Source: a virus. Taken from it: a stretch of 64,000 bases of DNA. The notes under the pieces were generated by a model. It did not search any database. It saw nothing but the letters and a program-made list of their open reading frames with translations, and was not told the origin of the DNA. Each line of letters starts with the position of its first letter. The first letter of the stretch is position 1. The position numbers were made by a program, and so were the translations under genes. Below, one piece after another: positions 39,814 to 57,327 of the stretch. The DNA is taken from positions 1 to 64,000 of IMG/VR virus record IMGVR_UViG_3300023174_000058, one strand, 5' to 3'.

Positions 39814-40678
39814 TAACCACTACCACCAGTACCAGTAGAAGGACGGCCACCACTAGGGCTACCCCTACTACCTATAGTTCTACCCCTACCCGTACCCTAT
39901 AACTATATCCATAGGTAGAGGTACCCCTAGTAGTACAGGGGAGGGGCGGCATAACAATAAAAAATATAGATAGGGATAACCATACATATAGATAAAAAAA
40001 AGTAAAACCCCTATAGCCCATATGGGAATGGGAAGGGGATAAAAAACATTAGTATAAATTATCTATAGGATCTAAAATATGGGTAGGGTAAAACTCTATA
40101 GACGGGGGATACCTACAGTAATAGAATATGGGATGCCAAATTTCACATACAATACATTGTAATTTATAAACTATATAAAAATATAGCACTTGTGGGGTAC
40201 GGAAATGCCAAGTATGAGGGGGCGGATAAAGCCTTTTCTGCCCCAAATTGGTGCAACTGCCCGAAATCAGGGCACTTTTTAGAAACAGCTATGCACATTT
40301 CCTCCCTATAAAAGGTGGCCCACACATGCTATAATAGACAAAAGGGTGCCATCCCCCCATAAAAAGGAGGGGCGATAATCCTAAATCTATATATTCTAAT
40401 CCTATTACTACAAGGCTAAAACCTCTATCCATCTTATTACAGGGATAGTATACTCCAGCATAATAGTTATGTCAATAGATGTTCCCCCTATAGAATAAAA
40501 AAAATGGGGTGGGGAGGGGGCTAGGCAGACGCGCAGGGCCTTTTTTTCAGCCCCCCAATAAAAGGCCGGAAACCCCGGCCTAGCCCCCCGTCGCAGCCCT
40601 TTTATTTTCGGCAATAGGAAACCCCCCGCTCCAGATAGGCAACGGGGGGCAGCCCTAAGATAGTGTTAGCCTTGCGAC

Positions 40679-41764
40679 TTACTTCTTGGCCTTCTTGCTA
40701 CCGCCAAGGAGATCGACAACGTGCTGCTTAACGCTCTTGCCGTCCACAGTCAACTTGTGCATTTCAAGGATCAGGCCCATGATAGCGGGCGACTTGCTTG
40801 CATCGGTGTAAAACTTCATGCCCGCCTCGCTGGGCAGACGGAGGAAGAAACGGAGGACGTTATCACGCTCCTCGACCGGCATATCCTTGGAAACACGCCC
40901 GCTGGCAAGAACCTTGTCAACAAGGGCGGTGTATTCACCCAGTTTGTAACCCTTCATGCCGTCGAAACGACCGGAGAGAATATCGTCAACGGAGACAACC
41001 CGCTCCAGATTCTTGATATAGTCACGCGAGGCAAGCGCAGCCTCCATGCCGATATAACCGCTGGCGATGTTGTAATACACATCCAGCCGCGTCTTGAAAT
41101 CGTCGCCTTCAAGGATGCCCGCCTTCGTAACGGTATCCGAAAAACGCTTCCACGAACGGCGGGAGGGATAAATCTTGTTAGGCTCAAACTCCCCCTTGTG
41201 CTCCAGATGCGCGCTCTGATCGTTAATAAAGTCCACAATCAGGGGATGAATGTTACCGGCGCGGCCATAATCCAGCCAATCGCCCACAGACGGTTCAATG
41301 TCGAAAGCGGTCCAGCGGTCCAGTTCGGCCGGGTCCATGTCGTTAACCGCGTACTGGGCACCGTGCGTGCCGCCGTTCACAGCGGCGAAAATAAGCGTCT
41401 CAGGGTGCAGACGATGACCGTTGATCGTACGGGAATCCGTCAACTGGAAAATGCCCTGACGGACCTCAGTGGTGCCGCGATCCACCTCATCCAGAAAGAG
41501 GACAACGGGGCGTTCGCACGCTTCCTTGAACCAATCCGGGGGGTTCCAAGAGGTACGGTTGCCGTCGATGACGGGCAGACCCACAAGATCGCCCTCAGTC
41601 ATCTGCGAGACACGGCGCTCGACAACCGGCAGACCACGCTTCGCCGCAAACTGATAGACCAGTTCGCTCTTGCCGATACCGTGCCGCCCGCGCAGCATGA
41701 TAGGATGCTTGGCGTCCGCGATAAGGGAAACGAACGAGTTAAACGTCTTGAAGTCGATAGCCAT
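40679..41764 (-). CDS. MoxR-family AAA+ ATPase
   Basis: GRHGIGKS, LFLDEVDR, AAVN, MDPAELDRW. Confidence 0.88.
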   Translation of the reverse strand: MAIDFKTFNSFVSLIADAKHPIMLRGRHGIGKSELVYQFAAKRGLPVVERRVSQMTEGDLVGLPVIDGNRTSWNPPDWFKEACERPVVLFLDEVDRGTTEVRQGIFQLTDSRTINGHRLHPETLIFAAVNGGTHGAQYAVNDMDPAELDRWTAFDIEPSVGDWLDYGRAGNIHPLIVDFINDQSAHLEHKGEFEPNKIYPSRRSWKRFSDTVTKAGILEGDDFKTRLDVYYNIASGYIGMEAALASRDYIKNLERVVSVDDILSGRFDGMKGYKLGEYTALVDKVLASGRVSKDMPVEERDNVLRFFLRLPSEAGMKFYTDASKSPAIMGLILEMHKLTVDGKSVKQHVVDLLGGSKKAKK

Positions 41765-42043
41765 TACCTTACCCCTTTTTGGTGACGCTCCATACGTCAA
41801 CCGTTTGGAGAGAATAACCTAAGTCGCTGCCCTATGCAACAACTTTTTTTGTTCTATCGGTAGAGTGGGCCTCTCCTGCATCCCGCTCAACCGTGAAAGG
41901 CAATATACAGGAGGCGGGCGATCCCGTCAAGCGCTAAAAAAAGGCTAGGCGGCAGGGGCTAGCCCCCCAACCCTGCCCTTTTTTGCGGGGCAGGAAAAAG
42001 CCCGCCCCCCATTTCGGGAGAGGCGGGCAGGGTTCCTGTGCTA

Positions 42044-43255
42044 TTAGTTCAGTTTCTTCTTAATGGGGATGATACGCTCGCCGTTTCGGAAGTATGGATT
42101 TTCCGCACCATTAAGGTCGGTCATCCACATACGGCGGCACTTGGAGGGTTTAGGCGCGGGAGCCATCATATCAGTCAGGACGATATGCCCGTCAAAGGTG
42201 CCAGCCTTGTTGACATACTCAGTCGGGGCGTCGAAATCGGTGCCGCCCATCATAACGCGGGTTGCCTTAGCCCGCTGGCCCTTCTTCCATTCATACACAA
42301 GGGTAGGCTCCACACGGGTATCGAACGGAATGACGGTAAAGGTTGCCAGTTTGGAAAGACTGTTAAGTTCGCCAAAGAACGCTTCAAGCAGTTCATCCGA
42401 AACGCTGCCGCTCTGGTCAATCGAAATGGCGATATGCGCGGAGCGGTTCGACTTCTTGCCGGGATGGATGTAAGGGAAACGCTTGTTGATACGTTTCACC
42501 GTGCTGGACTTGTGCGAACGCTGTGCATTACCAACGAACATACGGAGGACGGCTTTCCAGTCAATCGTACCATTAATGAAACGCAAAATCTCCTTCCGCA
42601 TATCATGCGGCACGCTGCCCCAACCGTTGCCCCCCTTGTTGTTGGCTTCCTCTGCGGCACCCTTCATAATCTCGCGCAGACGCTCCTTTGCCATAGCCTT
42701 GACTTCTTCCGGCACGTTGCCCTCGCCCCAGCCGTCGTGCGAGTCCATGTTACCGCACGAGCCATCGCAGGTGGGACCGTCGCCGCCATCCTCGCCGCTG
42801 GCATGGTTGCCGTCGCACTTACCGCCCTTTTCGTCCTGCTTGTCCTTCTCCAGCCGCTTATAGTAGTCCTCTGCGGTCAAACCATCGGGATAGTTAAACT
42901 TCTCAGGCATAAGGGCAAAATCGGGCAGTTCACCCTTAAGATGGCAGTTAATGGACAGATCGGTAGCAAAGTTCCAACGCTTACTGATCTTCTTGCCATC
43001 GGGCGAACGTCCGAGACAATGATCGAGCATAAGATGGTAAAGTTCGTGCTTTAGAACACCGCGACGATGGTTGTCGGGCAACTTCTCAAAAAACTCCTCG
43101 TTATAGACCATCTCGAAATGACCGTCATCCATAACGCGCACGCCAGCGGTAGGGACCGACTTGGTGGGACGCTTGGAAATATGACGCGACACGGCAGCGA
43201 AAAAAGACTCGTTCAAGAGCAGACGGAACATATCGTTTTCAAGATCGTAAGCCAT
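42044..43255 (-). CDS. Metallopeptidase-like + VWA protein (DUF2201-type)
   Basis: HELYH, WNFATDLSIN, MIDAS DQSGS, GGTDF, LTD. Confidence 0.85.
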   Translation of the reverse strand: MAYDLENDMFRLLLNESFFAAVSRHISKRPTKSVPTAGVRVMDDGHFEMVYNEEFFEKLPDNHRRGVLKHELYHLMLDHCLGRSPDGKKISKRWNFATDLSINCHLKGELPDFALMPEKFNYPDGLTAEDYYKRLEKDKQDEKGGKCDGNHASGEDGGDGPTCDGSCGNMDSHDGWGEGNVPEEVKAMAKERLREIMKGAAEEANNKGGNGWGSVPHDMRKEILRFINGTIDWKAVLRMFVGNAQRSHKSSTVKRINKRFPYIHPGKKSNRSAHIAISIDQSGSVSDELLEAFFGELNSLSKLATFTVIPFDTRVEPTLVYEWKKGQRAKATRVMMGGTDFDAPTEYVNKAGTFDGHIVLTDMMAPAPKPSKCRRMWMTDLNGAENPYFRNGERIIPIKKKLN

Positions 43256-43394
43256 CGCAGACCTCGCGCTGCTCCATGCAGCGTGGAGAGACTATACAGC
43301 AGACGGGGGGCGGTTGTCAATAGGGGAAAAAAGGCGGGGCCGTGGGGGCTAGCCCCTGCCAGATAACCTTTTTAGGCTACCGGCAGGGGTAGGA

Positions 43395-43997
43395 CTAGGG
43401 CATAATACCCGTTACATAATGATTATAGTTTCCACCCTTTTCGCTTCCAATCAGGAGACGTTGGGGCATGGTGACTTTCTTAACAAGAACTTCTGGGTCA
43501 TAATCAATATCGTGAGAAGGTGCTTCAATCGTAAAGTTAATCCGATTGTAATAATCATGTTCCTTTGACACGCTATTTGGATCCTTTAGGCGCATAAGCA
43601 TGCGGCTAATGGGCACGGAAACAGTAATCTCCTCAGCCCCACCATCAAAAGAAACAAGGCTAGCATGAACCGATCGGGCAATAAAACTTTCATTAACGTA
43701 TCTGGGTTCAAGTTTGACACGCTTTGAATACTTCAGATTGCGCGCTTCAATAAAGCCACAGTTAGCAACCCAATCAAAATCCTTTACCATGCAAAGTTTA
43801 AACTTCTCAGGACTCCAATAATCTTGGACTCGGAGAAGAGCGCCAACGCCCAGACCAACCTTGGCAAACCCTTCAATAAGGGCTTTGCGTTCCTTTGGAG
43901 TATGGGTTAACACAATGTTACGCTGGTCCTTGAAATCGGGGCAATCCGGCTTTCGGTGTCCAATATTCCTACAGTATCCGCAAAGACGCTCAGACAT
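43395..43997 (-). CDS. Protein with N-terminal CCHC zinc knuckle
   Basis: CGYCRNIGHRKPDC; promoter TTGACA(44059)-17-TATTGT. Confidence 0.7.
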   Translation of the reverse strand: MSERLCGYCRNIGHRKPDCPDFKDQRNIVLTHTPKERKALIEGFAKVGLGVGALLRVQDYWSPEKFKLCMVKDFDWVANCGFIEARNLKYSKRVKLEPRYVNESFIARSVHASLVSFDGGAEEITVSVPISRMLMRLKDPNSVSKEHDYYNRINFTIEAPSHDIDYDPEVLVKKVTMPQRLLIGSEKGGNYNHYVTGIMP

Positions 43998-44134
43998 AAT
44001 AGCCTCGCCGCTCTCCATGAGCGTAGGCAGACAATAGCATGGGAACCTCACCGTGTCAAGAGGGACAAAAAAGGACCGCTGAAAGGGGCTAGCCCCCTGC
44101 CCAACCGGTTTTATCCAGCGGGAGGGGACCATCA

Positions 44135-44227
44135 TTAACGCTTCTTGTTTTGGTTACGGGTGCGGCGCTTCTTACTCCCGATCTTTCGCCTACCCTTGCG
44201 CGGACGGTTCTTTGCTGGCCAACCCAT
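44135..44227 (-). CDS. 30-aa very basic peptide
   Basis: MGWPAKNRPRKGRRKIGSKKRRTRNQNKKR with AAGGAG RBS. Confidence 0.6.
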   Translation of the reverse strand: MGWPAKNRPRKGRRKIGSKKRRTRNQNKKR

Positions 44228-44277
44228 GACTAACTCCTTTTGTTAGGTCTATTCTTATCGAGCAAACTACTTATAGT

Positions 44278-44886
44278 ATGGAGAACACAATGGAAACTAC
44301 CAAAGTTTGTAATGGATGTAAAGAAGAAAAGTTACTTGTCGAATACAATAAAGACAAAAGCAAGAAAGACGGATACCAAACACGGTGTAGAGCCTGTAAG
44401 CAAGTTTCCGATAATGCTTGGAGGCAGGAGAACAAAGACAGCGTAAATGCTAAGTCGAAAGCATGGCGTAAGGTCAATAGGCAGCGAGCGCAAGAAAACA
44501 TTAAACGCTGGCAGGAGGAGAATCCAGAACGATACCGCGAAATCCAGCGCAAGCATTGGCGTAAGTCTTACGAAAAGAACAAGTTCAAGAAGCTTGTTTC
44601 CGGTGCTATTAAACGTTCACTCAAAGGAATATGGAAGTCAAAAGCCATCTTTGAAAGACTTGGCTATACCGTCGATCAACTCAAAGAGCATCTAGAAAGC
44701 AAGTTCACAGAAGGCATGACTTGGGAGAACCACGGCGAATGGCACATAGATCACATAACGCCACAGTCTTGGCTACCATTCTCCAGTATCGAAGACGAAA
44801 ACTTTATAAAGTGCTGGTCGCTAAGTAACCTTCAGCCTTTATGGGCTAAGGATAATATCAGCAAGGGTAACCGCTATGAAGGATAG
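44278..44886 (+). CDS. HNH homing endonuclease-like
   Basis: Zn-ribbon N-terminus, HLESKF..GMTWEN.GEWHIDH..P, NLQPLW..DN..K. Confidence 0.85.
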   Translation: MENTMETTKVCNGCKEEKLLVEYNKDKSKKDGYQTRCRACKQVSDNAWRQENKDSVNAKSKAWRKVNRQRAQENIKRWQEENPERYREIQRKHWRKSYEKNKFKKLVSGAIKRSLKGIWKSKAIFERLGYTVDQLKEHLESKFTEGMTWENHGEWHIDHITPQSWLPFSSIEDENFIKCWSLSNLQPLWAKDNISKGNRYEG

Positions 44887-44907
44887 GAGGCATACCGGAC
44901 CTCCCTT

Positions 44908-45126
44908 CTATGCGATAAACTTCCAACGCCTATTATCTGCTGCAATCTTACTTACCCCCTCTTTTGAGAGAGGGGCATCACCGTGGGTAAGACCAATCAT
45001 CTTAACCGTATCGGCGTCATAGAACTTTGGATCACACTCTATGTATTCTGCGATAAGATAATAAAAGTTCTTACCCAATCCATAGAAGCACCAGATATCG
45101 CCTACCTGTGGAGTACGGCTGCTCAT
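44908..45126 (-). CDS. GDI-family small paralogue
   Basis: PQVGDIW...KFIA. Confidence 0.7.
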   Translation of the reverse strand: MSSRTPQVGDIWCFYGLGKNFYYLIAEYIECDPKFYDADTVKMIGLTHGDAPLSKEGVSKIAADNRRWKFIA

Positions 45127-45308
45127 GCTACCCACCTGTAGTACTGAAAACAGGAGATATCGGTTTCATCCTCGCCCCAAGCATTATCCAGCCACAGAAT
45201 AAAATAACGATGCCCCCACTTGCTGTACCTACGCACGATGCTAGTCACCATAAAGTGTGCCTGTGAGCCGGGGGAATAGTAGATGTCGCCTACCCGTGGA
45301 TCATACAT
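45123..45308 (-). CDS. GDI-family small paralogue
   Basis: PRVGDIY...RWVA. Confidence 0.7.
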   Translation of the reverse strand: MYDPRVGDIYYSPGSQAHFMVTSIVRRYSKWGHRYFILWLDNAWGEDETDISCFQYYRWVA

Positions 45309-45529
45309 TAGGCGAGCCTCTCACAATCTTTTAAAACACTAAAATCAAGTGACCACTCCCCATAGCCAGTATCCCAGTAGTTCGACTCCATTACAAGCAC
45401 TTCGTAATGCGGGTAGTGCTTTTCAGGCAGCCGCTTACCTACCAGAAGCACCGCATAGTTTGCAACCCCTTGCATTGGTTGCCGCATCTGGTACCGCAAA
45501 ATGTCGCCCGTGCAGACCGTTGAAATCAT
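45308..45529 (-). CDS. GDI-family small paralogue
   Basis: TGDIL...ERLA; leaderless promoter upstream. Confidence 0.65.
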   Translation of the reverse strand: MISTVCTGDILRYQMRQPMQGVANYAVLLVGKRLPEKHYPHYEVLVMESNYWDTGYGEWSLDFSVLKDCERLA

Positions 45530-45566
45530 GGAAGCACTCTACCAGAGAAGGGAGTGACTGTCAAGG

Positions 45567-45642
45567 TGGCGGTCCCGGCTGGATTTGAACCAGCGTAACT
45601 CTGTTTAGAAGACAGATGCCTAATCCGCTAGACTACGGGACC
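45567..45642 (-). tRNA. tRNA-Arg(UCU)
   Basis: Cloverleaf, anticodon loop CT-TCT-AA, GGTTCAAATCC, encoded CCA. Confidence 0.9.
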
Positions 45643-45734
45643 GTAAACAAGAACAAAAAGGTGCCCCAAGCCAGTTATTCCTTCTTAGGAGCAGGCTGCA
45701 TAGGCGTTGCGCAAACGAGGAACCTATGCATTAT

Positions 45735-45809
45735 TGGTGGGGAAGGTGGGGCTCGAACCCACAACTAACGGCTTAAAAGGCCGCTACTCTACCATTGAGT
45801 TACTTCCCC
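45735..45809 (-). tRNA. tRNA-Lys(UUU)
   Basis: Cloverleaf, CT-TTT-AA, GGTTCGAGCCC, CCA. Confidence 0.92.
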
Positions 45810-45816
45810 GAAAAGT

Positions 45817-45902
45817 TGGTGCCCAAGGCCGGACTCGAACCGGCAAGCCTGTTACGGCGGAAGATTTTAAGTCTTCTGTGTATACCATTTCACCACTTGG
45901 GC
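45817..45902 (-). tRNA. tRNA-Leu(UAA)
   Basis: Class II cloverleaf, CT-TAA-AA, CCA. Confidence 0.92.
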
Positions 45903-45905
45903 AAG

Positions 45906-45996
45906 TGGTCGGCCCGCTAGGAGTCGAACCTAGTCTAGGCGGTCATCTACCGCAAAACGATTATAAGTCGTTCTCGCATTGCCGATGCACGGGCCG
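45906..45996 (-). tRNA. Atypical tRNA, anticodon UAU, long variable arm
   Basis: 7-bp acceptor, 4-bp D stem with 5-nt loop, AACGA-CTTATAA-TCGTT, GCGGT/ACCGC V-arm, T arm, ACCA. Confidence 0.7.
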
Positions 45997-46002
45997 ATTA
46001 TT

Positions 46003-46332
46003 CTATTTTTCTAGTTCATCGTGAAGTTCACTATGGCAATTATGACAGACCATAATGCACTTGTCAAGTTCTTCTTTTATCTTCTCCCACTTGCGAGCAT
46101 GGGAACCAGAGATCCCAAAGTCTTTTTGGGAAGGGTCGAGATGGTGAAAGGCTAGGGCACGCTTACTCTTGCAGTACCCGCACCTCTCACATTTCCCGCC
46201 TTTATATTCGACACACCGATCTTTCAAGTCGTGTCGCTTACGGTTTGACATACAGGAGTTACAGACAGTCCTAGTATGCCCTTTCTTTCTATCATAGTCA
46301 AACGATCTTTTACACTCTTTACACTCAGTCAT
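46003..46332 (-). CDS. HNH endonuclease
   Basis: YKGGKCERCGY...FHHLDP..K...C..VCHNCHSELH. Confidence 0.85.
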   Translation of the reverse strand: MTECKECKRSFDYDRKKGHTRTVCNSCMSNRKRHDLKDRCVEYKGGKCERCGYCKSKRALAFHHLDPSQKDFGISGSHARKWEKIKEELDKCIMVCHNCHSELHDELEK

Positions 46333-46385
46333 GTGGGAGCCTCCTATGCTCTAACTAGTGCGAGAGCGGAGATTGTTCCCACATT

Positions 46386-46408
46386 TCTAACCGCTAGGCT
46401 ACAGGACC
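46386..46408 (-). pseudogene. 5' fragment of a tRNA gene
   Basis: GGTCCTGTAGCCTAGCGGTTAGA acceptor/D-arm start with no continuation. Confidence 0.45.
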
Positions 46409-46748: not shown

Positions 46749-46859
46749 TGAACGTATAGTACCCCGGATCGTGTCACTTGTCAACGAACATAAAAGGAGG
46801 TAGGAGAAGGGCTAGCCCCCCTGCCCCCCGCTTTTATTGCGGGGGTGGGGTTGGTCGTG

Positions 46860-47609: not shown

Positions 47610-47750
47610 CGTTGCCTCCTTCGCTCTCCATGAGCGTATGCGGACTATATATGGTCCCCTGCATTGTGTCAAGCGACAAAAAAAGGTGTTCGGCGGGGGC
47701 TAGCCCTCCCCCAAGGGCCTTTAATCAATGCTTGTAAAGACACCAGCGGT

Positions 47751-48850: not shown

Positions 48851-48934
48851 GTTGGGGATCATATCGGGGGAAGGGCTGGGTGTCAAGGGGTATTTGCGGA
48901 GAGGGAGGGGCTAGCCCCACAGGCGGGCAAAAAC

Positions 48935-49210
48935 CTAAGCTACCCTGTGCCACTCATCAAGCTCAAAGTTCATGTGGATAAGACGCGTTTCGCCCGTTTC
49001 CAGTTTAAGCATTTGGAACGTCAGCCCATCATTAGGGAACCAACCCACAGTAGCGTCATCGCCATTTGGAGCTTCCACCAACACAAAGTGCCAAGTTTTA
49101 TATTCATCGCCATAGGGCACAGTCATGCTCCAGATGTCACCAACTTGGGGCATATCCTCATCGGGGATCTTCCAGAGTTCGCTATTAGGCTTCCGTCGCT
49201 TGCCCATCAT
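48935..49210 (-). CDS. GDI-family small paralogue
   Basis: PQVGDIW...HRVA. Confidence 0.7.
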   Translation of the reverse strand: MMGKRRKPNSELWKIPDEDMPQVGDIWSMTVPYGDEYKTWHFVLVEAPNGDDATVGWFPNDGLTFQMLKLETGETRLIHMNFELDEWHRVA

Positions 49211-49640: not shown

Positions 49641-49781
49641 GGAGGGATAATATCGGTGGTAGGCAGCGAAGTCAAGAGCAAATAAAATGGCTATGGAGGA
49701 GGGCTAGCCCCTCCCAGCCCACCTTTTATCATGCTTGACGGGTAGGAGAGGAAGGGGTACTATGCAAGGAGGAGGGTTGCT

Positions 49782-50003: not shown

Positions 50004-50327
50004 ATGGCTACCTCTAACGAGATTCTGGCTGAGATCGCGTCGTACAGCGCTGCAAATGGGCGTCCTTGCCCTGCAAAGTACCTGACCGACAAGTTTGGTG
50101 CCGATGCTGCCGATCTTATCGTCTCTCTCAAGAAGGAGGGTAAGATCTACGGTCGCCGTGGTCGCACGGGCGGTCTTGTGAGCAACGAGGCATCCCCGCT
50201 GCCGCAGGTTGACTTTAACACCCCGCAGGTTGATGCGGGCAACGACCTTGCGGCTGAGTTCGCTGCCCTTGCTGCCAAGTTGGCGGCTGAGTCGGATGCG
50301 GGCGAAGTGGCTGCGACCGGCACCTAA
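50004..50327 (+). CDS. Winged-helix DNA-binding-like protein
   Basis: LIVSLKKEGKIYGRRGRTGG wing resembles Rrf2-type wHTH. Confidence 0.55.
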   Translation: MATSNEILAEIASYSAANGRPCPAKYLTDKFGADAADLIVSLKKEGKIYGRRGRTGGLVSNEASPLPQVDFNTPQVDAGNDLAAEFAALAAKLAAESDAGEVAATGT

Positions 50328-50346: not shown

Positions 50347-50374
50347 GCGGCCCCCCGAAAGGGGGGCCGTTGTT
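50347..50374 (+). terminator. GC hairpin terminator
   Basis: gcggcccccc-gaaa-ggggggccgt. Confidence 0.7.
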
Positions 50375-50509
50375 CTATATGTGGAGTCTATCACATCCTG
50401 AACACATCGTCAAGCCCCGGAAAAAAGGCTAGACGACGGGGGCTAGCCCCTGCTGGAACACATTTTATTTCTCTTGCCACTAGCCCGAACAACGTGTATT
50501 GTCTCCCGC

Positions 50510-50882: not shown

Positions 50883-51127
50883 TGCGAGTAAACTTTTATT
50901 TCACAGATAAGATTGATACCTATAAGATTGAAGCCGAAGTTTCAAAGAGTAACCGTGTCACCGTTCTAACCGTAGAGGATAGTTGGGGCTCGGACGTTGA
51001 CTTTGACGACTTTAGCGAGGACGAAAAGAAGGGCATTTATGCCAAGGCATATAGTGCTCGTGACTCGCTCGAACAGGCAGAGGAACCCGATTACGACGGC
51101 GACGAAGGGGAGGCCGCTTATGAGTAA
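50882..51127 (+). CDS. Acidic small protein
   Basis: Coupled ORF. Confidence 0.6.
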   Translation: MRVNFYFTDKIDTYKIEAEVSKSNRVTVLTVEDSWGSDVDFDDFSEDEKKGIYAKAYSARDSLEQAEEPDYDGDEGEAAYE

Positions 51128-51395
51128 GAAATACAAGAACATGACCGCGGAGGAAAAGATTGCCTACCGTGAGCAACGCCGCAAGGCACAAGAGGCAGAA
51201 ATGCCTACCGCCGAACTCGTTGCCAAGATGGAACGTAATGCCGCCATCCTGCTACGGCATTATCCACCGGCAGAGGCACGGCGGCAAATGGAAAACATTC
51301 TTACGCACGCTGTCTTTATGGATGAGTGTCATAGCGGTTTCTCCGAAGCGATCCTCGCTATGGGTGTAAAACTAGACGAACTTATCGACGGGTGA
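51120..51395 (+). CDS. Hypothetical protein
   Basis: GGAGG RBS, MSKKYKNMT. Confidence 0.55.
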   Translation: MSKKYKNMTAEEKIAYREQRRKAQEAEMPTAELVAKMERNAAILLRHYPPAEARRQMENILTHAVFMDECHSGFSEAILAMGVKLDELIDG

Positions 51396-51544
51396 ACGTT
51401 CCCCCCTCCCGGCAGAAAAGGCTGGGATGCGGGGGCTAGCCCCTCCCATATCATATTTTTTCTTCTGTACTGCGATGCGGTGATGCGATACATTCCCTTT
51501 TGTCCACAGGGGACACCGGCTCCAAGCGAGCCACCGGAGAGAAG

Positions 51545-51835
51545 ATGTCTGTTTGCCTTACTGCCAATCAGAAGAAGTACCTTTCCTATTACCAGAACTA
51601 CTTCGGTAAGCACGGTGAGTTTCCTAACACCGCTGATGCTGCTCGTTATTTTGGTAAGCCGTCCACGACGGTCCTTAATGTTATTGGTGCGATCTTTCTG
51701 AAGGGTGGTTTCACGGGTGGTAAGCCCCTGACCCGCAACCTGCTTGTGGCGCACGGCGAGAGCAAGCCTCTCAATATCAGGGCAACAAAGGCTAAGAAAA
51801 ACACGCAGCAGTCTAACGCTACGCTGCACGAGTAA
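51545..51835 (+). CDS. LexA N-terminal-like DNA-binding protein, no peptidase domain
   Basis: LTANQKKYLSYYQNYFGKHGEFPNTADAARYFG.PS..V...LKG aligns by eye to the LexA DBD. Confidence 0.65.
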   Translation: MSVCLTANQKKYLSYYQNYFGKHGEFPNTADAARYFGKPSTTVLNVIGAIFLKGGFTGGKPLTRNLLVAHGESKPLNIRATKAKKNTQQSNATLHE

Positions 51836-51962
51836 ACGGCTCCCCACCCACCAGAAAAGCGGTGGGCACGGGGGCTAGCCCCTCCACGCAAACATTTTAT
51901 TCTGCTTGACCCACCCAGCGATCCCGCATATACTGCCTTCACGGTCGAAGGACCGATGGAGG

Positions 51963-52232
51963 ATGGGGATGCTGCTCAAGGGCATGGATACCCGCAAGTT
52001 GTTCGCAGAGGTCGATGCAGCGGTCGGACTTGCACTCGCCAGCCGTCCTAGCAAGTTGGACGAGATTGATTGGGAGTGCTGGACGAAAGAGATGCTGGCA
52101 GAAGATGCTAGCAACGTCAACATGACGATTGAGATGGTCTGCGTCGAGTACGGTTGGACTGCCGATGCCTATAACCGCATCGTGCGCCGTATGCGCCGCA
52201 ATCGTCACACTCCCCCAGAAATGATGTATTGA
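51963..52232 (+). CDS. Hypothetical protein
   Basis: TTGACC-17-TATACT promoter, RBS. Confidence 0.55.
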   Translation: MGMLLKGMDTRKLFAEVDAAVGLALASRPSKLDEIDWECWTKEMLAEDASNVNMTIEMVCVEYGWTADAYNRIVRRMRRNRHTPPEMMY

Positions 52233-52298
52233 CAAGCGACACCATTACTGATAAAGTCCGGTTCTACTAACCGCCCAGTAGGGCAGAGGAGCAAGAGG

Positions 52299-52490
52299 AT
52301 GAAGGTCAAGACTAGCAAGCGCAACCATGTGTACGTTATCCAGAAGAAGGAGGGGGGGCGGTGGGCCACCATCATTGATACAAACGGCCCCATCATCATC
52401 CGTACCCGTAGCCTTGCCCGCACCGTAAGCCGCGAGTATAAGAACCTTTCCAAGACCCCCCGTTCATTCCGCGTTAAGCGTCTCGCTTAA
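52299..52490 (+). CDS. Small basic protein
   Basis: RBS, promoter at ~52229. Confidence 0.55.
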   Translation: MKVKTSKRNHVYVIQKKEGGRWATIIDTNGPIIIRTRSLARTVSREYKNLSKTPRSFRVKRLA

Positions 52491-52523
52491 TCCACAACCC
52501 CACACGGTATAGGACGCCCGCCT

Positions 52524-52910
52524 ATGGCACGCCGCATCAAAACCCGCGACTATTCGATGCTCCAGATTATCACCGGAGCAACAAAGGCGGGCGTCCACCG
52601 TGATAATGCCAAACACGCAAGCCTGACCGCTTGCAGAGGAGAAAAAAAGATGTTCGCTGCCCGCAAGAACCTTCGCCATGACCTCCAGATTGAGTGGACC
52701 CGTGACGCAGAACACGGTGGAGTCGAAGTGTTCGATGTGTATGGTGCCCGACTCCCGCAAGGCGGCTGGCATATCGTCCGCATGGACATCATCGACGAGG
52801 ATGGTATGCCCATCACCTTTAACACGATGAGTCTTTCGGAGGAGGAGCGTATTGCTATCGAGAACGCCCTCGAAGACGAGAGCGCAGGACTGTCGGCTAC
52901 CCGACACTAG
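52524..52910 (+). CDS. Hypothetical protein, acidic C-terminus
   Basis: ORF; internal RBS suggests a second start at MFAARK. Confidence 0.5.
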   Translation: MARRIKTRDYSMLQIITGATKAGVHRDNAKHASLTACRGEKKMFAARKNLRHDLQIEWTRDAEHGGVEVFDVYGARLPQGGWHIVRMDIIDEDGMPITFNTMSLSEEERIAIENALEDESAGLSATRH

Positions 52911-53049
52911 AGGGTGCCCCTCCGGTTGCCAAAAAAGGCGGCTGCGAGGGGGCTAGCCCCTGCCCCATGCCATTTTATTTTGCTTGCGCTTTCGGCGGTT
53001 CCCCCGTATAGTCTACCCACGCTCGACGGTCGGGCGATGGGGTGCAACG

Positions 53050-53721
53050 GTGGCGAACGTCAAGCCTTACAACGGTAAATGGAATAAGAATAAGAAACTC
53101 CAAAAGACGCAGGGCACCGGCGCCTATAACATCATCGGTTTTGGCATCCCTGCCGATCACGATTTTACTGACGAAAACCTTGTCAAGCGTAACACCTGCC
53201 CCGGTGCGCTGGCTTGTCGCGCCGTGTGCTATGCTAAGCAGGGCGGTTATCTTTGGCCCGCTAGCATTGCGGCCCGTGCCCACAACCTCGCGCTTTCGCA
53301 AAACCCTAACTTCGTCGCGCTTATGATCGAGGATCTCGCCCGCTTCCGCAAGGTTGACACCGTGCGCGTGCATGATAGCGGGGACTTCTACTCGCAGGGC
53401 TACTTTGACGCATGGTGTTGGATTGCACGCGCCTTCCCTAACATTACCTTCTACGCCTACACCAAAAGCCTTGATCTCGACCTGTCGGGCGCACCAGATA
53501 ACTTCCGCGTGACGCAATCCCTCGGCGGCAAGTTTGACGGGCTTGTGAACCTTGGAAAGCCGCACTCCCGCATTTTCACCAGCCATGAGGACCGCACCCG
53601 CGCCGATTATGTTGACGGTAACTTGACGGATGCCTATGCAATCGAAGGGGAAACGCGCATCGGGCTTGTGTACCACGGGAACAAGGGCCTGACAGACGCT
53701 CAGAAAAAGTTCTTTCGCTAG
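53050..53721 (+). CDS. Gp88-like (radical-SAM-related) protein
   Basis: TCPGALACRAVCYA, RVHDSGDFY, FYAYTK. Confidence 0.75.
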   Translation: MANVKPYNGKWNKNKKLQKTQGTGAYNIIGFGIPADHDFTDENLVKRNTCPGALACRAVCYAKQGGYLWPASIAARAHNLALSQNPNFVALMIEDLARFRKVDTVRVHDSGDFYSQGYFDAWCWIARAFPNITFYAYTKSLDLDLSGAPDNFRVTQSLGGKFDGLVNLGKPHSRIFTSHEDRTRADYVDGNLTDAYAIEGETRIGLVYHGNKGLTDAQKKFFR

Positions 53722-53808
53722 AGTAATCCCCCGGACGCTGGAAAAAAGACCAGCCGAAGGGGGCTAGCCCCGCCCGCCACGGCTTTTATCGCCGGGGGGC
53801 AGAGGCTG

Positions 53809-53988
53809 TTAAATCTCGGACATCGTGTAAGCAGCCGTCCAAACACCGGGGCGTTCACGCTCACCCTTGTCGCTGTCGTAGTTAAGGAACCGGGATTCAT
53901 TCATTGAATAAACGGTTTCAATGTCCCCGTCCGCATTAAACAATGCGCTGTATTCCATACCACCAAAGATAAAGTTTACTCGACGCAT
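53809..53988 (-). CDS. Hypothetical protein
   Basis: GGAGG RBS before MRRVNF. Confidence 0.5.
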   Translation of the reverse strand: MRRVNFIFGGMEYSALFNADGDIETVYSMNESRFLNYDSDKGERERPGVWTAAYTMSEI

Positions 53989-54091
53989 TACCCTTCCTCC
54001 GAAGAAAGCCAGAAGCCAAGGAAAATAACCGAAACAAAAATGATAACGCCGCCGATTGCCGCAATGTCGCCGCCATACATGGTAAATCCTC

Positions 54092-54325
54092 CTAGGCCTG
54101 AGCCAACGTTCCAGCCGCGATGAGCGTCTTGTATTCCATCGCCGCAAACACGATATCCTCCGCGATAAGATCCTTCAGTTTCTCAATGTCGCCGGGAGTC
54201 AGGTTGACGCGCTCGCCCATGCTGTCAATGACGCGGATATCGTCAAAATCCTTCGAGTCAGGGTTGACCGTGAAGTAGCAGTTAACGTCCCGACCATTTC
54301 GCTTGTAGATGATGAGGTTTTCCAT
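54092..54325 (-). CDS. Small hypothetical protein
   Basis: GAGG RBS. Confidence 0.55.
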   Translation of the reverse strand: MENLIIYKRNGRDVNCYFTVNPDSKDFDDIRVIDSMGERVNLTPGDIEKLKDLIAEDIVFAAMEYKTLIAAGTLAQA

Positions 54326-54401
54326 GTTGCCTCTTAGCGCCCGCCAATGGGCAGAAGGGTGAGAGAAAGTGCGAGACTGATACTAATGCAAGCCAGTGCG
54401 A

Positions 54402-54587
54402 TCATCGGGCCCCCTTTTCACAGAGAAGATACGCCTCCTCCGGGGAAATGTCAAGCCCCTTCCGCTTACCGGCCATGCAGGACATAACCTTAAAAGCGTG
54501 CTCGTCGTTGTTGTTCATAAGATCATAAACAACCGCGCCCCACGAAATAACGATCCACGCTGCAAACAAACCCGTCAGAATCTTCAT
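54402..54587 (-). CDS. Small membrane protein
   Basis: N-terminal TM; promoter TTGCTA-17-TACTTT. Confidence 0.55.
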   Translation of the reverse strand: MKILTGLFAAWIVISWGAVVYDLMNNNDEHAFKVMSCMAGKRKGLDISPEEAYLLCEKGAR

Positions 54588-54702
54588 CGCCCTTCCTCCT
54601 AAAAAAGAAAGTATCACCGCCTCCCCCGGATAGCAAAAAAATAAAATGGTCCGTTGGGAGGGCTAGCCCCCCTTGCCTCGGCTTTTATTGCCGGGGCTGG
54701 GG

Positions 54703-54782
54703 TTTTGTCCGAAAGTAACCATTCTGTTCTCCGCCCCCCATAATAGGGAGCAGGCAGGAATCGAACCTGCTACCGGACAAAC
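54703..54782 (-). ncRNA. Circularly permuted tRNA-like RNA (YrlA-like topology)
   Basis: Terminal stem, T arm, closed acceptor-like hairpin, D-like arm. Confidence 0.55.
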
Positions 54783-54784
54783 TT

Positions 54785-54931
54785 TTAGTAGGGTTCCAAC
54801 CGGAGGTTTTCGGCGCAGCAAATCATTTCGATGCCGCTCTTGAACCGGACAAGGGCGCACTTGTAGCCCGTTGAAATGATCTTTCCCAGACCGTACAAGT
54901 GGTGACGCACAATGTCATGGTCGCGCAGCAT
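54785..54931 (-). CDS. 48-aa Tudor/SH3-like peptide (not in ORF track)
   Basis: DIVRHHLYGLGKII...VRFKSG resembles the PcrA C-terminal Tudor pattern. Confidence 0.5.
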   Translation of the reverse strand: MLRDHDIVRHHLYGLGKIISTGYKCALVRFKSGIEMICCAENLRLEPY

Positions 54932-55323
54932 TAGAGATCCTCCCCCTTCGTGTCCGCCTTGATATCACGGGCAAGGTCATCGGCGTTATAACGGTCAAAA
55001 ATATCGTCCGGGTAAAGGGTAAGCATCATGCAACGGATGGCAGGATCGGCGTTGGCTTCCTCGATCATGTCCCCGATAATCTTACGGTCGTGCTCACGGC
55101 TGTCCTCATCCTCCGGCGTCCAACCGGGGATGTGGAAATCGGCAGTAGCGTCGAGGAAGGTACGGTGCGCCGCTTCGGCATCCTTGTCCCGCGTGTCGGG
55201 GCGGTCATACAGTGCAGCCGCATGGAAAGAGCAAGCGGCATCCTCATCGCAGCCGCAAATCTCAGTGCCGGGGTGGGGGATCGTGTTCGCGCTCATCGCA
55301 TCGGCCTCCGTGGTGGGGAACAT
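54931..55323 (-). CDS. Acidic hypothetical protein
   Basis: Promoter TTGCCA-17-TATACT. Confidence 0.6.
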   Translation of the reverse strand: MFPTTEADAMSANTIPHPGTEICGCDEDAACSFHAAALYDRPDTRDKDAEAAHRTFLDATADFHIPGWTPEDEDSREHDRKIIGDMIEEANADPAIRCMMLTLYPDDIFDRYNADDLARDIKADTKGEDL

Positions 55324-55477
55324 GGAGAGAGTATAGGGGGCAACCCTGCCGGTGGCAAGAGAAATAAAATACGTTCCAGCGGGGGCTAGCCCCTCCCAGT
55401 TGGCCTTTTATTCGGGGCACTAGAAAAGCCCGCCCCTTGCGGGTACGGGCCGAAGGTGCTACGCTTGACGCTTTGCG

Positions 55478-55714
55478 TTAGAGAGTGGCGAACGTTTCCG
55501 CGTAATCACGGGCGGTGTTGCGGTTCAGGGTGCGCCAACCCTCGCCAACGCTCCACACCGTCTCGAACCCCGGCTTGAGCGCAGGACGCACGCCGCCCTT
55601 CGTGTTGGCAGCGATGAACTCTGCGGGCAGGTCGCCCACCTGCACGAACGTCATCGTGCGATCTTCGCCCTTGACGGTGGTGAACGCGCAGTTGTAAGCC
55701 TTGACGATCGCCAT
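55478..55714 (-). CDS. Hypothetical (WYL/SH3-like: F.T.KGE.R.M...WRT)
   Basis: Promoter, RBS and terminator; motif by eye. Confidence 0.55.
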   Translation of the reverse strand: MAIVKAYNCAFTTVKGEDRTMTFVQVGDLPAEFIAANTKGGVRPALKPGFETVWSVGEGWRTLNRNTARDYAETFATL

Positions 55715-55946
55715 TTTGCTTCCCCTTGTTTGACTGGGCACCATGCCCGCCGTCGATGATGTGAATATACGCGGGAACCTTGCCGCCGTCAAGGGGAATA
55801 AAATATCATCCAGTGGGGGCTAGCCCCTCCTGCCACGGCTTTTATTTGCCGGAGCGAGGGAGCGCGCACCTCCTAATCAGTGTCACCGAAGAAATAGTCC
55901 TCGTCCGTTTATTTTCTTTTTGGAATAGACGAAGACTATTTATTGT

Positions 55947-56552
55947 ATGCTAACAGAAAAGAAATGCTATGGTTGTCAAACTACCAAAACTATTACAGAA
56001 TTTGGTAATGATAAAAGAGGCGTTGGTGGATTTAAAAATTATTGTAGACTGTGCTGCACCAAACGTCGTAAACTTCATTACGAGAAGAACAAAGAGAAAG
56101 AGTTAGTAAAAGGCAAAGAATACAAAGCTGCAAATAAAGAAAAGCTAGCAGAGCTATCAAGGGCGTATCGTAAGGCAAATCCTGAGAAGGTTAAAGAATG
56201 GAAACGAAACGAATATAAACGCCGCCGTTCGATTAAGAAGAATATTGTTGAAGACAGCATCAGCCGCGCAATCAATAAAAGAGTAAAGTTCAATAGGCAG
56301 TTTGGACATTGGGAAGAAATATTAGGTTATTCCGTAGAGCAATTAATGCTTCACTTGGAAAGCAAATTCAAGCCCGAAATGAACTGGGACAACTATGGTT
56401 CATATTGGCACATAGACCACGTAAAACCTAAGAGCTGGTTTGAATATGATGCTTTGGATAGTGAGGCTTTCAAACAATGTTGGGCATTAGATAATCTACA
56501 ACCGCTTGAAGCCTCACTCAACTGCTCTAAACAAAATAGATACGAAGGTTAG
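55947..56552 (+). CDS. HNH homing endonuclease-like (paralogue of 44278)
   Basis: HLESKF...WDNYG..WHIDH..P, NLQPL, RYEG end. Confidence 0.85.
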   Translation: MLTEKKCYGCQTTKTITEFGNDKRGVGGFKNYCRLCCTKRRKLHYEKNKEKELVKGKEYKAANKEKLAELSRAYRKANPEKVKEWKRNEYKRRRSIKKNIVEDSISRAINKRVKFNRQFGHWEEILGYSVEQLMLHLESKFKPEMNWDNYGSYWHIDHVKPKSWFEYDALDSEAFKQCWALDNLQPLEASLNCSKQNRYEG

Positions 56553-56917
56553 AAGTCATCGTCGCTACCATAACATCCATAATCTTCTGATGTTCCCCAT
56601 CCTGCGCTGGCAAGAGCATAGGCGTCGTCGCTGTAGTCAAGGTCCGCACCATAAGCAGAATCAAGTTCCTCATCGGCCTCGTCATACAGCCGCTCTTCCA
56701 TCCTGTCGGCAACGTCCTGCTTGCACAGCGCGTCCTCACACACAGGGGCACCACAGCCAATGCAGGGCTCCCCTTCGTTCAGTTCGGGGTAGTGCTTCAA
56801 CAGATCCTCGCCCATGCGCTGGCAGTCGCCGCAAACGCGGGTGCCATCGTCAAGCGCAATGGCGGCGTGCTTCTCGCACAGGTCGCACTTAGGGGCGAAA
56901 GGGATGCCAAGGGTCAT
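56549..56917 (-). CDS. Zn-binding, highly acidic protein
   Basis: Multiple CxxC, DDAYALASAGWGTSEDYG tail. Confidence 0.6.
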   Translation of the reverse strand: MTLGIPFAPKCDLCEKHAAIALDDGTRVCGDCQRMGEDLLKHYPELNEGEPCIGCGAPVCEDALCKQDVADRMEERLYDEADEELDSAYGADLDYSDDAYALASAGWGTSEDYGCYGSDDDF

Positions 56918-57327
56918 GTCGCAGTCTCCTATCCCGTCAATCGGGCGTGAAGGGATATTGGCATGGCTTGGGCTGGGATGCAATCAAAATAAAATGCTTT
57001 CGCCGGGGGGCTGGGCCCTCTTTTTTAAACCTTTTATTTTATGGGGTGGGGGAGTAGGGGGTGGTGGAGAGCGGCTGCGGCTAAAGGTGCGAAACTATCT
57101 ACCATAGGGGGGAAATGTGGCATAAAGGGTGCATAACCCTCAAACAATCTCCCGGTAATTTTTTGAACTTTTTGTTCCTATATAAACAATCACCAATTCC
57201 GGTAATTTTTATACTTGTTTAAACTTGTACTTAATAAAAATGCGGGCTAGCAGCTTTTCCTGCCGTGAGCCCCCATTTTTTATATTGATGTTATGAAAAA
57301 ATTTTTTTGGGAATTTTTTTAGGATTT

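Follow-up and report, generated by a model that had tools for sequence, protein, structure and literature searches.

A 17-kb block of this 162-kb phage genome is cut by copies of a palindromic site, termed the dyad here, into about 16 promoter-bearing gene cassettes. In our best reading of the sequences the dyad would be a clade-specific, dyad-symmetric boundary between such cassettes and, for a group of phages whose polymerase is of the DnaE type, the counterpart of the PeSL elements of T4-type phages. The evidence leans towards a PeSL-like boundary site at which a dimeric factor probably recognizes the DNA duplex. The window referred to below is the whole stretch of DNA analyzed, i.e., the first 64,000 nucleotides of the viral record IMGVR_UViG_3300023174_000058 (162,187 bp, 89% complete).

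Architecture and distribution of the dyad

The dyad spans 48 bp and is tripartite: an AWAAAA tract, a 12-nt G-rich arm, the core GGGGCTAGCCCC, a 12-nt C-rich arm and a TTTTWT tract. Each half-site, read outward, is AGCCCC followed by the 12-nt C-rich arm and TTTTWT. A search of the window for the core with up to two mismatches returned 17 matches, against 0.85 expected from shuffles (100 shuffles, maximum 3 matches). Fifteen of the 17 copies have no or one mismatch, and those at 40576 and 57007 have two. Together with a half-degenerate copy at 40519 (GGGGCTAGGCAG, both tracts kept) this agrees with the 16 copies plus two degenerate ones counted in the first-pass annotation. The two degenerate dyads at the left of the block occupy 40501..40548, at the island edge (core at 40519), and 40558..40605 (core CGGCCTAGCCCC at 40576). 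The rest of the record holds a single further match, at 123213 with two mismatches, and the motif is therefore restricted to the block; apart from this weak match it is absent outside the block and inside genes, where it had been asked whether it is equally common.

Related loci were found via two conserved anchor genes on the minus strand (40679..43255), encoding an AAA_5 ATPase (40679-41800) and a DUF2201 metallopeptidase/VWA protein (42044-43255). Every dyad copy in the relatives L053 and L055 lies between gene calls. The only window ORF overlapping a dyad core is 43395-44135, and its true start should lie downstream of the dyad because the proteins of the relatives are ~195-200 aa; with the overlap attributed to the start call, the proposal that the copies are always intergenic holds.

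All dyad copies fall in an island (40000..57100) of 48-55% GC within a phage record of 27-40% GC, and the same GC step is present in the relatives L028, L053, L055, L057, and L073-L075. Gene orientation in the island is minus, then plus (49.7-53.7 kb), then minus, as previously described. A tRNA cluster (45567..45996, minus strand, module M04) comprises Arg-TCT, Lys-TTT, Leu-TAA, and Ile-TAT. An HNH endonuclease gene (38661-39572) adjoins the island, and another lies within the L055 island.

The information content per position, calculated from 86 half-sites of four phages, is 1.6-2 bits in the core, 0.1-0.6 in the 12-nt arms and 0.7-1.8 in TTTTWT. Across these 43 copies, from phages with 82-88% identity to the window in the DUF2201 protein, core and tracts are invariant and the arms variable, in line with the earlier description, and between orthologous dyads the core is retained although identity in the flanks falls to 50-78%. 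The full pattern was found at 11 single sites in 185,579 bacterial and archaeal genomes (596 Gb), against ~9 expected by chance according to our own estimate. By this count of reference genomes the pattern is at chance level and the dyad is not a host repeat. Ten of the 16 matching metagenome contigs bear 2-4 dyad copies in GC-rich DNA.

Numerous dispersed copies confined to intergenic regions, with HNH genes beside the island and inside that of L055, might also suggest a selfish palindromic repeat (REP/MITE-like) that owes its spread to a nuclease or transposase, does not act in expression and became associated with promoters only secondarily. We regard this as highly improbable. Conservation is blockwise with fully variable arms, whereas mobile copies would decay evenly; the dyads occupy orthologous positions in relatives and keep a fixed phase to -35 boxes in four clades; and a Y1 or other transposase was not detected in the record.

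Promoters and their spacing from the dyad

Of 37 promoter sides (W type, four related phages), 30 have their -35 box 29.5-30.5 bp from the dyad centre. In the window, 12 dyad sides lie at 29.5-31.5 bp and the one at 48907 at 26.5 bp, which reproduces the distances previously measured by hand; the sides at 52949 and 57007 were below the -35 threshold, and their 29.5 bp was read directly off the sequence. Promoters were found to the left of E1 (41937..41984, 30.5 bp; DUF2201/AAA_5 intergenic region, with orthologous dyads in L053, L055, and L057), E2 (43327..43374, 30.5 bp), and E3 (44067..44114, 31.5 bp), and at 29.5 bp to the left of E4 (46790..46837), E5 (47678..47725), E14 (55364..55411), E15 (55798..55845), and the degenerate E16 at the right island edge (56989..57036; GGGGCTGGGCCC; -35 box TTGCAT). 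E13 (54641..54688) has a weak left promoter at 28.5 bp. Right promoters at 29.5 bp belong to E10 (51853..51900) and E11 (52931..52978), the latter being the GP88 promoter (TTGCGC-17-TATAGT). The atypical E6 (48889..48936, -35 at 26.5 bp) has reversed tracts (TATTTGC ... GCAAAAA), resembles the outer boxes of the L074 type and has no counterpart at that position in any relative.

The first-pass annotation had recognized one copy with divergent promoters, which is E7 (49682..49729, core 49700; 30.5 bp left, 29.5 bp right); a second dyad, E8 (50421..50468, core 50439; 31.5 bp left, 29.5 bp right), also has promoters on both sides. At E9 (51414..51461, core 51432) there is at best a weak promoter and none that is convincing. 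E12 (53742..53789, core 53760) lies at a convergent junction and has no promoter, as had been noted.

Sigma70-like matches number 44 in the block (16.7 expected) and 63 in the AT-rich region at 20-38 kb (60.4 expected). Eight of the 19 strongest promoter-like sites of the block have no dyad and three dyads have no promoter, so the dyad is unnecessary for promoter activity.

The sister clades have the same architecture with changed boxes; the tracts are reversed in the L074 clade and the -35 box lies further out in the L075 clade. The distance is 29.5 bp in six of nine sides of L027, 29.5-31.5 bp in L074 and 38.5-40.5 bp, i.e., one helical turn further, in L075, although this 10-bp shift could simply reflect longer outer boxes.

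Arm pairing and the upstream hairpin

Dyad symmetry cannot by itself tell a DNA dimer site from a hairpin, and the outer boxes of the clade variants (AAAAGG/CCTTTT, ATGGGGG/CCCCCAT, and ATGATGC/GCATCAT) all retain the potential to pair. Arm-to-arm hairpins of the actual copies (-16.2 kcal/mol) were no better than those with arms swapped between copies (-17.8 kcal/mol), and mirrored arm positions pair at chance level. The arms are biased in composition (~50% C reading outward), and those on promoter sides are equally C-rich without a pairing partner. Since the G-rich/C-rich bias gives generic arm-to-arm hairpins of ~-16 kcal/mol, a role as RNA or cruciform is possible.

The dyad was rejected as an intrinsic terminator, its arms having no copy-specific complementarity and mirrored pairing being at chance. 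In the L074 clade, moreover, either strand read 5' to 3' has the T-tract before the dyad and the A-tract after it, a reversed polarity that rules this function out. Canonical terminators with perfect stems and U-tracts occur elsewhere in the phage, and in some modules an additional one is located immediately upstream of the dyad (e.g., 42000-42028).

On sides without a promoter, the arm on the side where the transcript enters finds its pairing partner beyond the tract and outside the dyad, in a fold whose loop is the A-tract. The earlier statement that the flanks do not form a long stem thus applies to arm-to-arm pairing and does not extend to these arms. A conserved, covarying hairpin made of one dyad arm and half the core ends each upstream transcription unit at its 3' end. 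Its stability is -19.2 kcal/mol on the 45 sides without a -35 box, compared with -9.7 kcal/mol on the 41 promoter sides (p=5e-8) and with -14.4 kcal/mol when the outer arms of the 45 sides were swapped between copies (p=5e-7). Examples are the right side of E4 (~46816-46846, minus strand), E10 (~51842-51874, plus strand, taking in the GGGG of the core), E11 (~52917-52952, plus strand), and both sides of E12. Stems at orthologous positions differ in sequence yet stay complementary, and the design recurs in two other clades, L027 and L074, where the loop is the outer box. The upstream and arm-to-arm hairpins are mutually exclusive, as the G-rich arm and GGGG are common to both.

These data bear on a plain PeSL, which we consider unlikely. 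In that case the dyad would be no more than a stem-loop that terminates transcription in both directions next to an early promoter; it would be kept uniform by repeated copying and gene conversion, and cassettes would be shuffled by ordinary homologous recombination between the repeats, with no dedicated factor. The succession of A-tract, GC-rich palindrome and T-tract has the classic shape, as in the A3-4 G3-loop-C3 T3-4 stem-loops of phage nt-1 (PMC4122927), but in the L074 clade the tract polarity is reversed. Generic pairing would supply the ~-16 kcal/mol, yet arm complementarity is not copy-specific and the competing stable hairpin folds first. Long, well-paired palindromes of this shape ahead of the promoters of the distant relative L037, and the negative recombinase search of the record, are in its favour; the extra canonical terminators just upstream of some dyads are not. 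Within-genome gene conversion is also insufficient, since the core is identical across phages with flanks at background divergence.

The covarying hairpin is better accommodated by an RNA-level element, to which we assign a minor but appreciable probability. Here the upstream hairpin and a GGGG-CUAG-CCCC hairpin would be recognized by an RNA-binding protein or RNase. They would serve in RNA processing or 3'-end stabilization, or else as an antiterminator/terminator switch with two alternative partners for the G-rich arm, the outside C-rich arm and the inner one that precedes the U-tract. Both stability contrasts, the different yet complementary stems, the design shared by the L027 and L074 clades and the mutual exclusivity of the two hairpins argue for it, and a pure DNA-site model leaves the upstream hairpin unexplained. 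However, the dyad is complete and symmetric at the divergent promoters 49700 and 50439, where no transcript enters, and the C-rich promoter-side arms have no partner. There is no RNA rationale for fixed 12-nt arms or a constant -35 distance, a hairpin tip has no need of invariance or palindromy, and the L074 structure has no following U-tract. The preference of the first-pass annotation for a protein site over an RNA hairpin was sound with regard to an intrinsic terminator (L074 tracts, L075 helical turn), but it missed the covarying hairpin. Both this 3' hairpin and the strong promoter-like sites without a dyad (8/19) had been overlooked.

Cassette mobility, candidate factor and known systems

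Whole cassettes are inserted, transposed or inverted among the relatives, and the ends of these cassettes lie within dyad sites. In the comparison of module order that had been proposed earlier, the order is variable and the breakpoints lie at dyads. The GP88 cassette (52955..53766, plus strand) comprises the promoter, a gene (52984-53721, PF17338 match) and a 3' hairpin, and occurs in three configurations, one of them inverted. In L053, L055, L027, and L073 it is placed between M08 and M09; in the window, L074, and L075 it follows M11, with inverted orientation in the last two. E8 is the junction where these four relative loci, from two distinct clades, hold the cassette. A dyad borders GP88 on each side in all of these but L055, for which none was found between GP88 and M09. 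Module M10 is present only in the window and L055.

A 334-bp one-gene cassette with a dyad at each end is found in L055 at a position occupied by a single dyad in L053, L057, and the window. In its left half, the first L055 dyad shares 78% identity with the single L057 dyad (background ~60%); in its right half, the second shares 68-70% identity with L053 and the window, compared with 60-62% for the other copy. These modest identity contrasts suggest that the insertion maps to the dyad core. The GP88 breakpoints were resolved to the dyad-promoter interval, and mapping to the core applies to the L055 case only.

No tyrosine integrase, serine recombinase or Y1 transposase was found in the 89%-complete record, which extends the earlier negative result for the window. 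A 107-aa protein (50004-50327, plus strand) with a conserved C-terminal helix is conserved in all clades. Its model (pLDDT 85-90 for residues 1-60) has three helices and a beta-hairpin, and the winged-helix domains of RsrR, IscR, and LexA rank highest among its fold matches (probability 0.93-1.0), with weak E-values of 0.03-0.3. Its putative recognition helix is acidic. Given this modelled N-terminal winged-helix fold, the protein is a candidate dyad-binding factor, linked to the dyad by location only.

PeSL (promoter-early stem-loop) cassettes were reportedly described in T4-type phages by Arbiol et al. in 2010. They are conserved promoter-stem-loop units associated with indels in hyperplastic regions (Comeau et al., 2014; PMC4122927) and were the right analogue to name. 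Like PeSLs, the dyads form many conserved composite units of a palindrome and a sigma70-like promoter, located between small function-unassigned genes of a plastic region, and the palindrome, bordered by runs of A and T, directly precedes the -35 box; in both, related phages differ by insertion, deletion or displacement of cassettes beside the units. Unlike PeSL phages, this phage has a DnaE-type polymerase and no shown T4 kinship. The dyads furthermore lie in a GC-rich island, have a tripartite palindrome with an invariant 12-bp core and variable unpaired arms, fail the intrinsic-terminator test with tracts reversed in one clade, and occur in phages among which a cassette is inverted. Terminator activity and mini-circles have been shown for PeSLs.

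Class I activator sites, e.g., those of CRP, are centred at -61.5, -71.5 or -82.5 and occur with UP elements. As in such sites, the dyad is centred ~64.5 bp upstream of the predicted start (74.5-75.5 in one clade, a whole-turn shift), has an A/T tract at the proximal UP position (-46 to -41) and could serve divergent promoters. Its binding protein is only a candidate, however, its sequence is unrelated to the CRP/FNR consensus, and dyads without promoters occur as do strong promoters without dyads. In phi29 the phage's own p4 protein acts as a dimer, bending DNA and switching promoters, and its sites are inverted A/T-tract repeats upstream of early and late promoters. The dyads share the inverted A-tract/T-tract boxes upstream of promoters, but the phi29 sites are few, lack a GC core and have no link to cassette shuffling.

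Integron attC arrays likewise consist of short cassettes of one or few genes separated by imperfect palindromes of excision and insertion. The dyad, in contrast, is a perfect palindrome reading identically on both strands, its cassettes have their own promoters and both orientations, and an integrase was not found in the phage record. RAT sites (BglG/SacY type) and lambda boxB also have a GC stem with an A-rich loop that immediately precedes and overlaps a second potential hairpin, the latter followed by a U-tract; the dyad arrangement differs in occurring at every gene boundary and lacking the U-tract in one clade, and a search of the phage for a cognate protein domain of the RAT/boxB type was negative.

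Overall, the observation made in the first-pass annotation is confirmed and its interpretation partly supported. In the mechanism that we favour, a dimeric, sequence-specific protein of probable phage origin would recognize the invariant palindromic core in double-stranded DNA; the winged-helix protein (50004-50327) is one candidate. Positioned ~65 bp upstream of the start on one helix face, with a tract in the UP-element position, this factor would place the presumed early promoters flanking the dyad under common control. At dyads without a promoter, its remaining role would be to mark or insulate transcription-unit ends. The stable hairpin closing the upstream unit may provide 3'-end protection or compete with the core hairpin. 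As all dyads are identical and symmetric, any two copies would be able to cross over, and by such crossovers a cassette may be excised, re-inserted or inverted.

Dyad copies and the GC-rich island

At up to two mismatches, the palindromic core GGGGCTAGCCCC of the dyad (a 48-bp tripartite site of outer tract, 12-nt arm, 12-bp core, arm and tract) was found 17 times against 0.85 occurrences expected, and all 17 copies lie within the GC-rich block at 40.0-57.1 kb (the island). A half-degenerate 18th copy at 40519 brings the island total to 18 in 17 kb, and the rest of the genome holds a single weak match (2 mismatches). The repeated dyad sites described in the first-pass annotation are hereby confirmed, and they are confined to this block. 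In the aligned copies, about 10 variable nt on either side separate the core from AWAAAA(GG) on the left and (CC)TTTTWT on the right. When 86 half-sites of the window and of three closely related phages were pooled, the information per position was 1.6-2 bits in the core, 0.7-1.8 bits in the tract and 0.1-0.6 bits in the 12-nt arm, where the C content is 50% compared to an island background of 27%.

The core string had no match in the literature, and the Rfam scan returned tRNAs only. The full dyad pattern occurred 11 times among 185,579 reference genomes, always singly and close to the chance estimate of about 9, and so does not represent a repeat of host genomes. For the core of the W type (the dyad form of the window and its closest relatives), scanning of IMG/VR yielded only scattered lone matches, and the pattern of a more distant relative, L027, was multi-copy in that phage's own contig only. 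When metagenomes were searched with the full pattern, 10 of 16 matching contigs carried two to four copies in GC-rich DNA.

The source record (162,187 bp, linear, 89% complete according to CheckV, the window being its first 64 kb) carries nearly all of its genes on the + strand. The window encodes a DnaB-like helicase, ribonucleotide reductase, a DnaE-like replicative polymerase (phrog_405), GroEL and an adenylosuccinate-synthetase-like enzyme; terminase, portal and major head protein are also encoded and were matched to general PHROGs. The adenylosuccinate-synthetase-like gene (29141-30169, +) matches a PHROG that bears the annotation of the PurZ-type enzyme found with 2-aminoadenine genomes, PurA being also possible. 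Searches of the phage database with island DNA gave tRNA matches only, and those with the DnaE, DUF2201 and GroEL proteins gave distant matches only (the best about 30% identical) and no close relatives. Kinship to a Thermus phiYS40-like phage was a guess that found no support in the literature search and was dropped.

The GC content is 48-55% in the island and 27-40% everywhere else. Since the same step (about 52% vs. about 34%) recurs in seven contigs of related phages (L028, L053, L055, L057 and L073-L075), the island is a trait conserved in this phage clade rather than a chimera of the assembly. In farther relatives, reached via the AAA_5 gene, the GC content rises just mildly around that gene. 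Five phage tRNAs (Arg-TCT, Lys-TTT, Leu-TAA, Ile-TAT and Thr-TGT), located at 45567-45996 (-) and 63330-63405 (+), all decode A/U-ending codons. This would suit an AT-rich phage whose host is richer in GC; the island genes would be the ones that are translated while the tRNAs are not yet available. The island module that carries tRNAs (M04) differs in size among the relatives.

Consensus-like sigma70 -35/-10 pairs, identified by sequence only, adjoin 13 of the 17 dyads, and the dyad-to-(-35) distances given in the first-pass annotation were reproduced on remeasurement. Promoter-like sites number 44 in the island against 16.7 expected, and are at chance level in the adjacent AT-rich 18 kb (63 vs. 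60.4 expected). Among the top 19 island sites (at least 10 of 12 consensus matches), 11 adjoin a dyad and eight stand without one; dyads 53760 and 40576 have no promoter and 51432 probably has none either, so that dyad and promoter are linked yet separable. Ahead of the island, an AT-rich run of mini-protein genes (34000-37600, +) has perfect 12/12 sigma70 promoters at 35168 and 36619 and several more at 10-11/12, all without a dyad.

Clade variants of the boxes and the terminator reading

The DUF2201 protein encoded in the island region has hundreds of metagenomic relatives. Contigs whose DUF2201 proteins are 82-88% identical carry 12 (L053), 10 (L055) and six (L057) dyad copies at the same distance to the -35 boxes as in the window. 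At 63-69% protein identity, the boxes of L027 and L073 read AAAATGGGGG, N6, GGGnCCGGCCCC, N5, CCCCCATTTT; those of L074 (63%) read TTTWTGATGC, N10, GGGGCTAGCCCC, N10, GCATCAWAAA, and L075 (61%) keeps GGGGCTAGCCCC as its core with a small palindrome, yTCTA-N4-TAGAr, on each side. In L074 an N run of the ENA contig (2586-2650) directly follows one dyad core, and the right side of that copy was left out. The core type is CTAG in three clades and CCGG in a fourth. Distant clades retain the dyad architecture, and their boxes change in concert. The -35 box still lies 29.5-31.5 bp from the dyad centre in L074; the distance is 38.5-40.5 bp in L075, one helical turn more, and 39.5-40.5 bp at two L027 sites. 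A farther relative, L037 (IMGVR_UViG_3300023176_005537, 157 kb), has its own GC-rich block with other repeats at 13000-19000, where eight promoters carry an operator-like TGTGTCA-N5-TGACACA upstream of the TATAAT box and TTGATCGATCC promoters come after each of four long hairpins of A-tract/palindrome/T-tract form.

A dyad flanked by A- and T-tracts might be read as a hairpin and hence as an intrinsic bidirectional terminator. Mirrored arm positions were complementary no more often than by chance (3-9 of 17 copies), the fold energies of the dyads did not differ from those with shuffled arms (z about 0), and real arm pairs (-16.2 kcal/mol) were no better than arms exchanged between copies (-17.8 kcal/mol); a long symmetric hairpin was rejected on these grounds. 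The first-pass claim that the flanks do not form a long stem was upheld as regards copy-specific arm pairing, and needs qualification in that the G-rich/C-rich bias of the arms gives rise to a generic, irregular arm-to-arm hairpin.

A different hairpin was found on the promoter-less sides, which are those where the upstream gene is predicted to be transcribed into the dyad. Here the G-rich arm, and often the core GGGG too, is paired with C-rich sequence lying beyond the dyad, and the A-tract is left as the loop. Its mean energy was -19.2 kcal/mol on 45 promoter-less sides vs. -9.7 kcal/mol on 41 promoter sides (p = 5e-8), and vs. -14.4 kcal/mol with swapped outer arms (p = 5e-7). The stems of orthologous dyads differ in sequence across phages and remain complementary, and the convergent junction at 53760 has the hairpin on both sides. 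Judged by these pairings, copy-specific selection acts on this tract-looped outside hairpin and not on the arm-to-arm hairpin, and the outside hairpin is more stable than that of the palindrome itself.

The dyad has neither a stable stem kept by complementary arms nor a U-tract directly after the stem, the tract of the W type being located 12 nt from the core hairpin. In L074, whichever strand is read, a T-tract precedes the dyad and an A-tract follows it, the opposite of an intrinsic terminator. The intrinsic-terminator reading is disfavoured by the lack of copy-specific arm pairing and by a tract that is misplaced in the W type and reversed in L074. Ordinary strong hairpins end modules at 42000-42028 (-), 50347-50370 (+) and 55429-55443 (-), one of them with a U-tract, and sit a few tens of bases before a dyad, which suggests that the dyad itself does not do the terminating job. 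The reversed tracts of L074 and the one-turn shift in L075 speak for recognition of the site as duplex DNA, phased with RNA polymerase, and an invariant dyad whose helical phase to the predicted promoters is fixed has the appearance of an operator or activator site.

Cassette mobility and comparison with PeSL elements

The island was cut at the dyads into modules M00-M17, and the inter-dyad segments of the relatives were assigned by tblastx. Modules M01-M08 are collinear across all relatives. The GP88 cassette (M12, 0.8 kb) lies between M08 and M09 in L053, L055, L027 and L073; in the window, L074 and L075 it follows M11, on the opposite strand in the latter two. It thus takes three configurations, one of which is inverted. 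A dyad bounds it at either end in all of these but L055, in which none was found between GP88 and M09. Dyad 50439 of the window combines the M08-side flank of one relative dyad with the M09 promoter of the other, as expected after precise excision. Module M10 is present in the window and L055 only, and the atypical dyad 48907 occurs in the window only and has reversed boxes resembling those of L074. In L055 an added one-gene cassette of 334 bp separates AAA_5 from DUF2201; compared with the single dyad of the relatives, its first dyad is 78% identical in the left half (background about 60%) and its second dyad 68-70% in the right half (60-62% for the other copy), which places the insertion junction at the core. 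The comparison of module order proposed in the first-pass annotation therefore gave an order that is not fixed, with the GP88 cassette moved or inverted, M10 gained or lost and the L055 cassette inserted, all at dyads.

The GP88 crossover could not be placed from the arm sequences, which are too diverged, homology resuming only at the -10 region; its breakpoint is resolved to the interval from stop codon to -10 box. The whole 89%-complete record has no match to Phage_integrase, Resolvase or Y1_Tnp (tyrosine integrase, serine recombinase and Y1 transposase), which extends the first-pass remark that no recombinase is visible in the window, and the cassettes have no cognate tyrosine or serine recombinase nearby of the kind that marks integrons and site-specific cassettes. 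Cassette exchange could be homologous or could proceed via an unrecognised enzyme. An HNH endonuclease gene (38661-39572, +) adjoins the island on its left and a second one lies within the island of L055 (7996-8550, -), both being possible added drivers of local gene exchange. With good support from the comparative data, the dyad very probably serves as cassette boundary and shuffling site. The symmetry of the site would account for the same cassette being found both moved and inverted.

In the hyperplastic regions of T4-type phages, conserved units of terminator and promoter, the PeSLs, mediate indels and displacements; their stem-loops are located directly upstream of the -35 box and may read A3-4 G3-loop-C3 T3-4 (PMC4122927). 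The dyad element shares with them its architecture, genomic setting and evolutionary behaviour: a strong sigma70-like promoter, here recognised from sequence, within the repeated unit; many conserved copies (18 in 17 kb) in a plastic region with small genes of unknown function; and indels and displacements between related phages located at the units (GP88, M10 and the 334 bp of L055). Mini-circles formed via exchange between adjoining units have been shown for the PeSLs. The PeSL stem-loop works as a terminator; a palindrome is present in the dyad element as well, with arms that lack copy-specific pairing and with a more stable competitor. The dyad element further differs in its GC-rich island, its tripartite dyad with invariant core, its lack of terminator features, the inversion observed and probably its phage lineage: the PeSL hosts are T4-like myoviruses, and the dyad phage has a DnaE-like polymerase, terminase, portal and major head proteins of general PHROGs and best phage-database matches of about 30% identity.

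A candidate factor and a possible two-part system

Recognition of the dyad as duplex DNA by a dimeric factor is the most likely mechanism, and somewhat more probable than not. The 20 small ORFs of the island matched no Pfam family above threshold. A 107-aa protein (50004-50327, +) is present in every clade and its predicted expression is served by the divergent dyad 49700. Its residues 1-60 gave a confident model (pLDDT 85-90) of three helices and a beta-hairpin. By fold, this model came closest to the winged-helix domains of RsrR, IscR and LexA, with weak E-values, in agreement with weak profile matches to Rrf2 regulators. This putative winged-helix protein is a candidate dyad factor linked by gene location alone, and a lead only.

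A self-contained phage cassette system, in which the dyad is both recognition and crossover site for a small dimer and a linked shuffling activity, is a speculative and rather improbable extension. A phage-encoded dimer, possibly the 50004-50327 protein, would bind the symmetric core and activate or insulate the flanking early promoters, and either this complex or a nuclease or recombinase that escaped recognition would excise, re-insert and invert the promoter-bearing cassettes. Such an enzyme would co-evolve with the core (CTAG or CCGG, according to clade). If true, this system would amount to integron-like shuffling of genes in which no integrase takes part and the site is a perfect palindrome.

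These data probably extend PeSL-type cassette shuffling past the T4-like phages and into a group of uncultured freshwater phages. The dyad separates two proposed roles of PeSLs, combining a likely recombination boundary with a promoter-phased DNA site, yet it failed the terminator test. The clade-specific versions of the boxes provide a natural experiment by which the factor reading them might be found. Finally, a GC-rich island predicted to be driven by host promoters, in an AT-rich genome with A/U-codon tRNAs, offers a clean case for studying how a phage's first genes are expressed before its own tRNAs are made.
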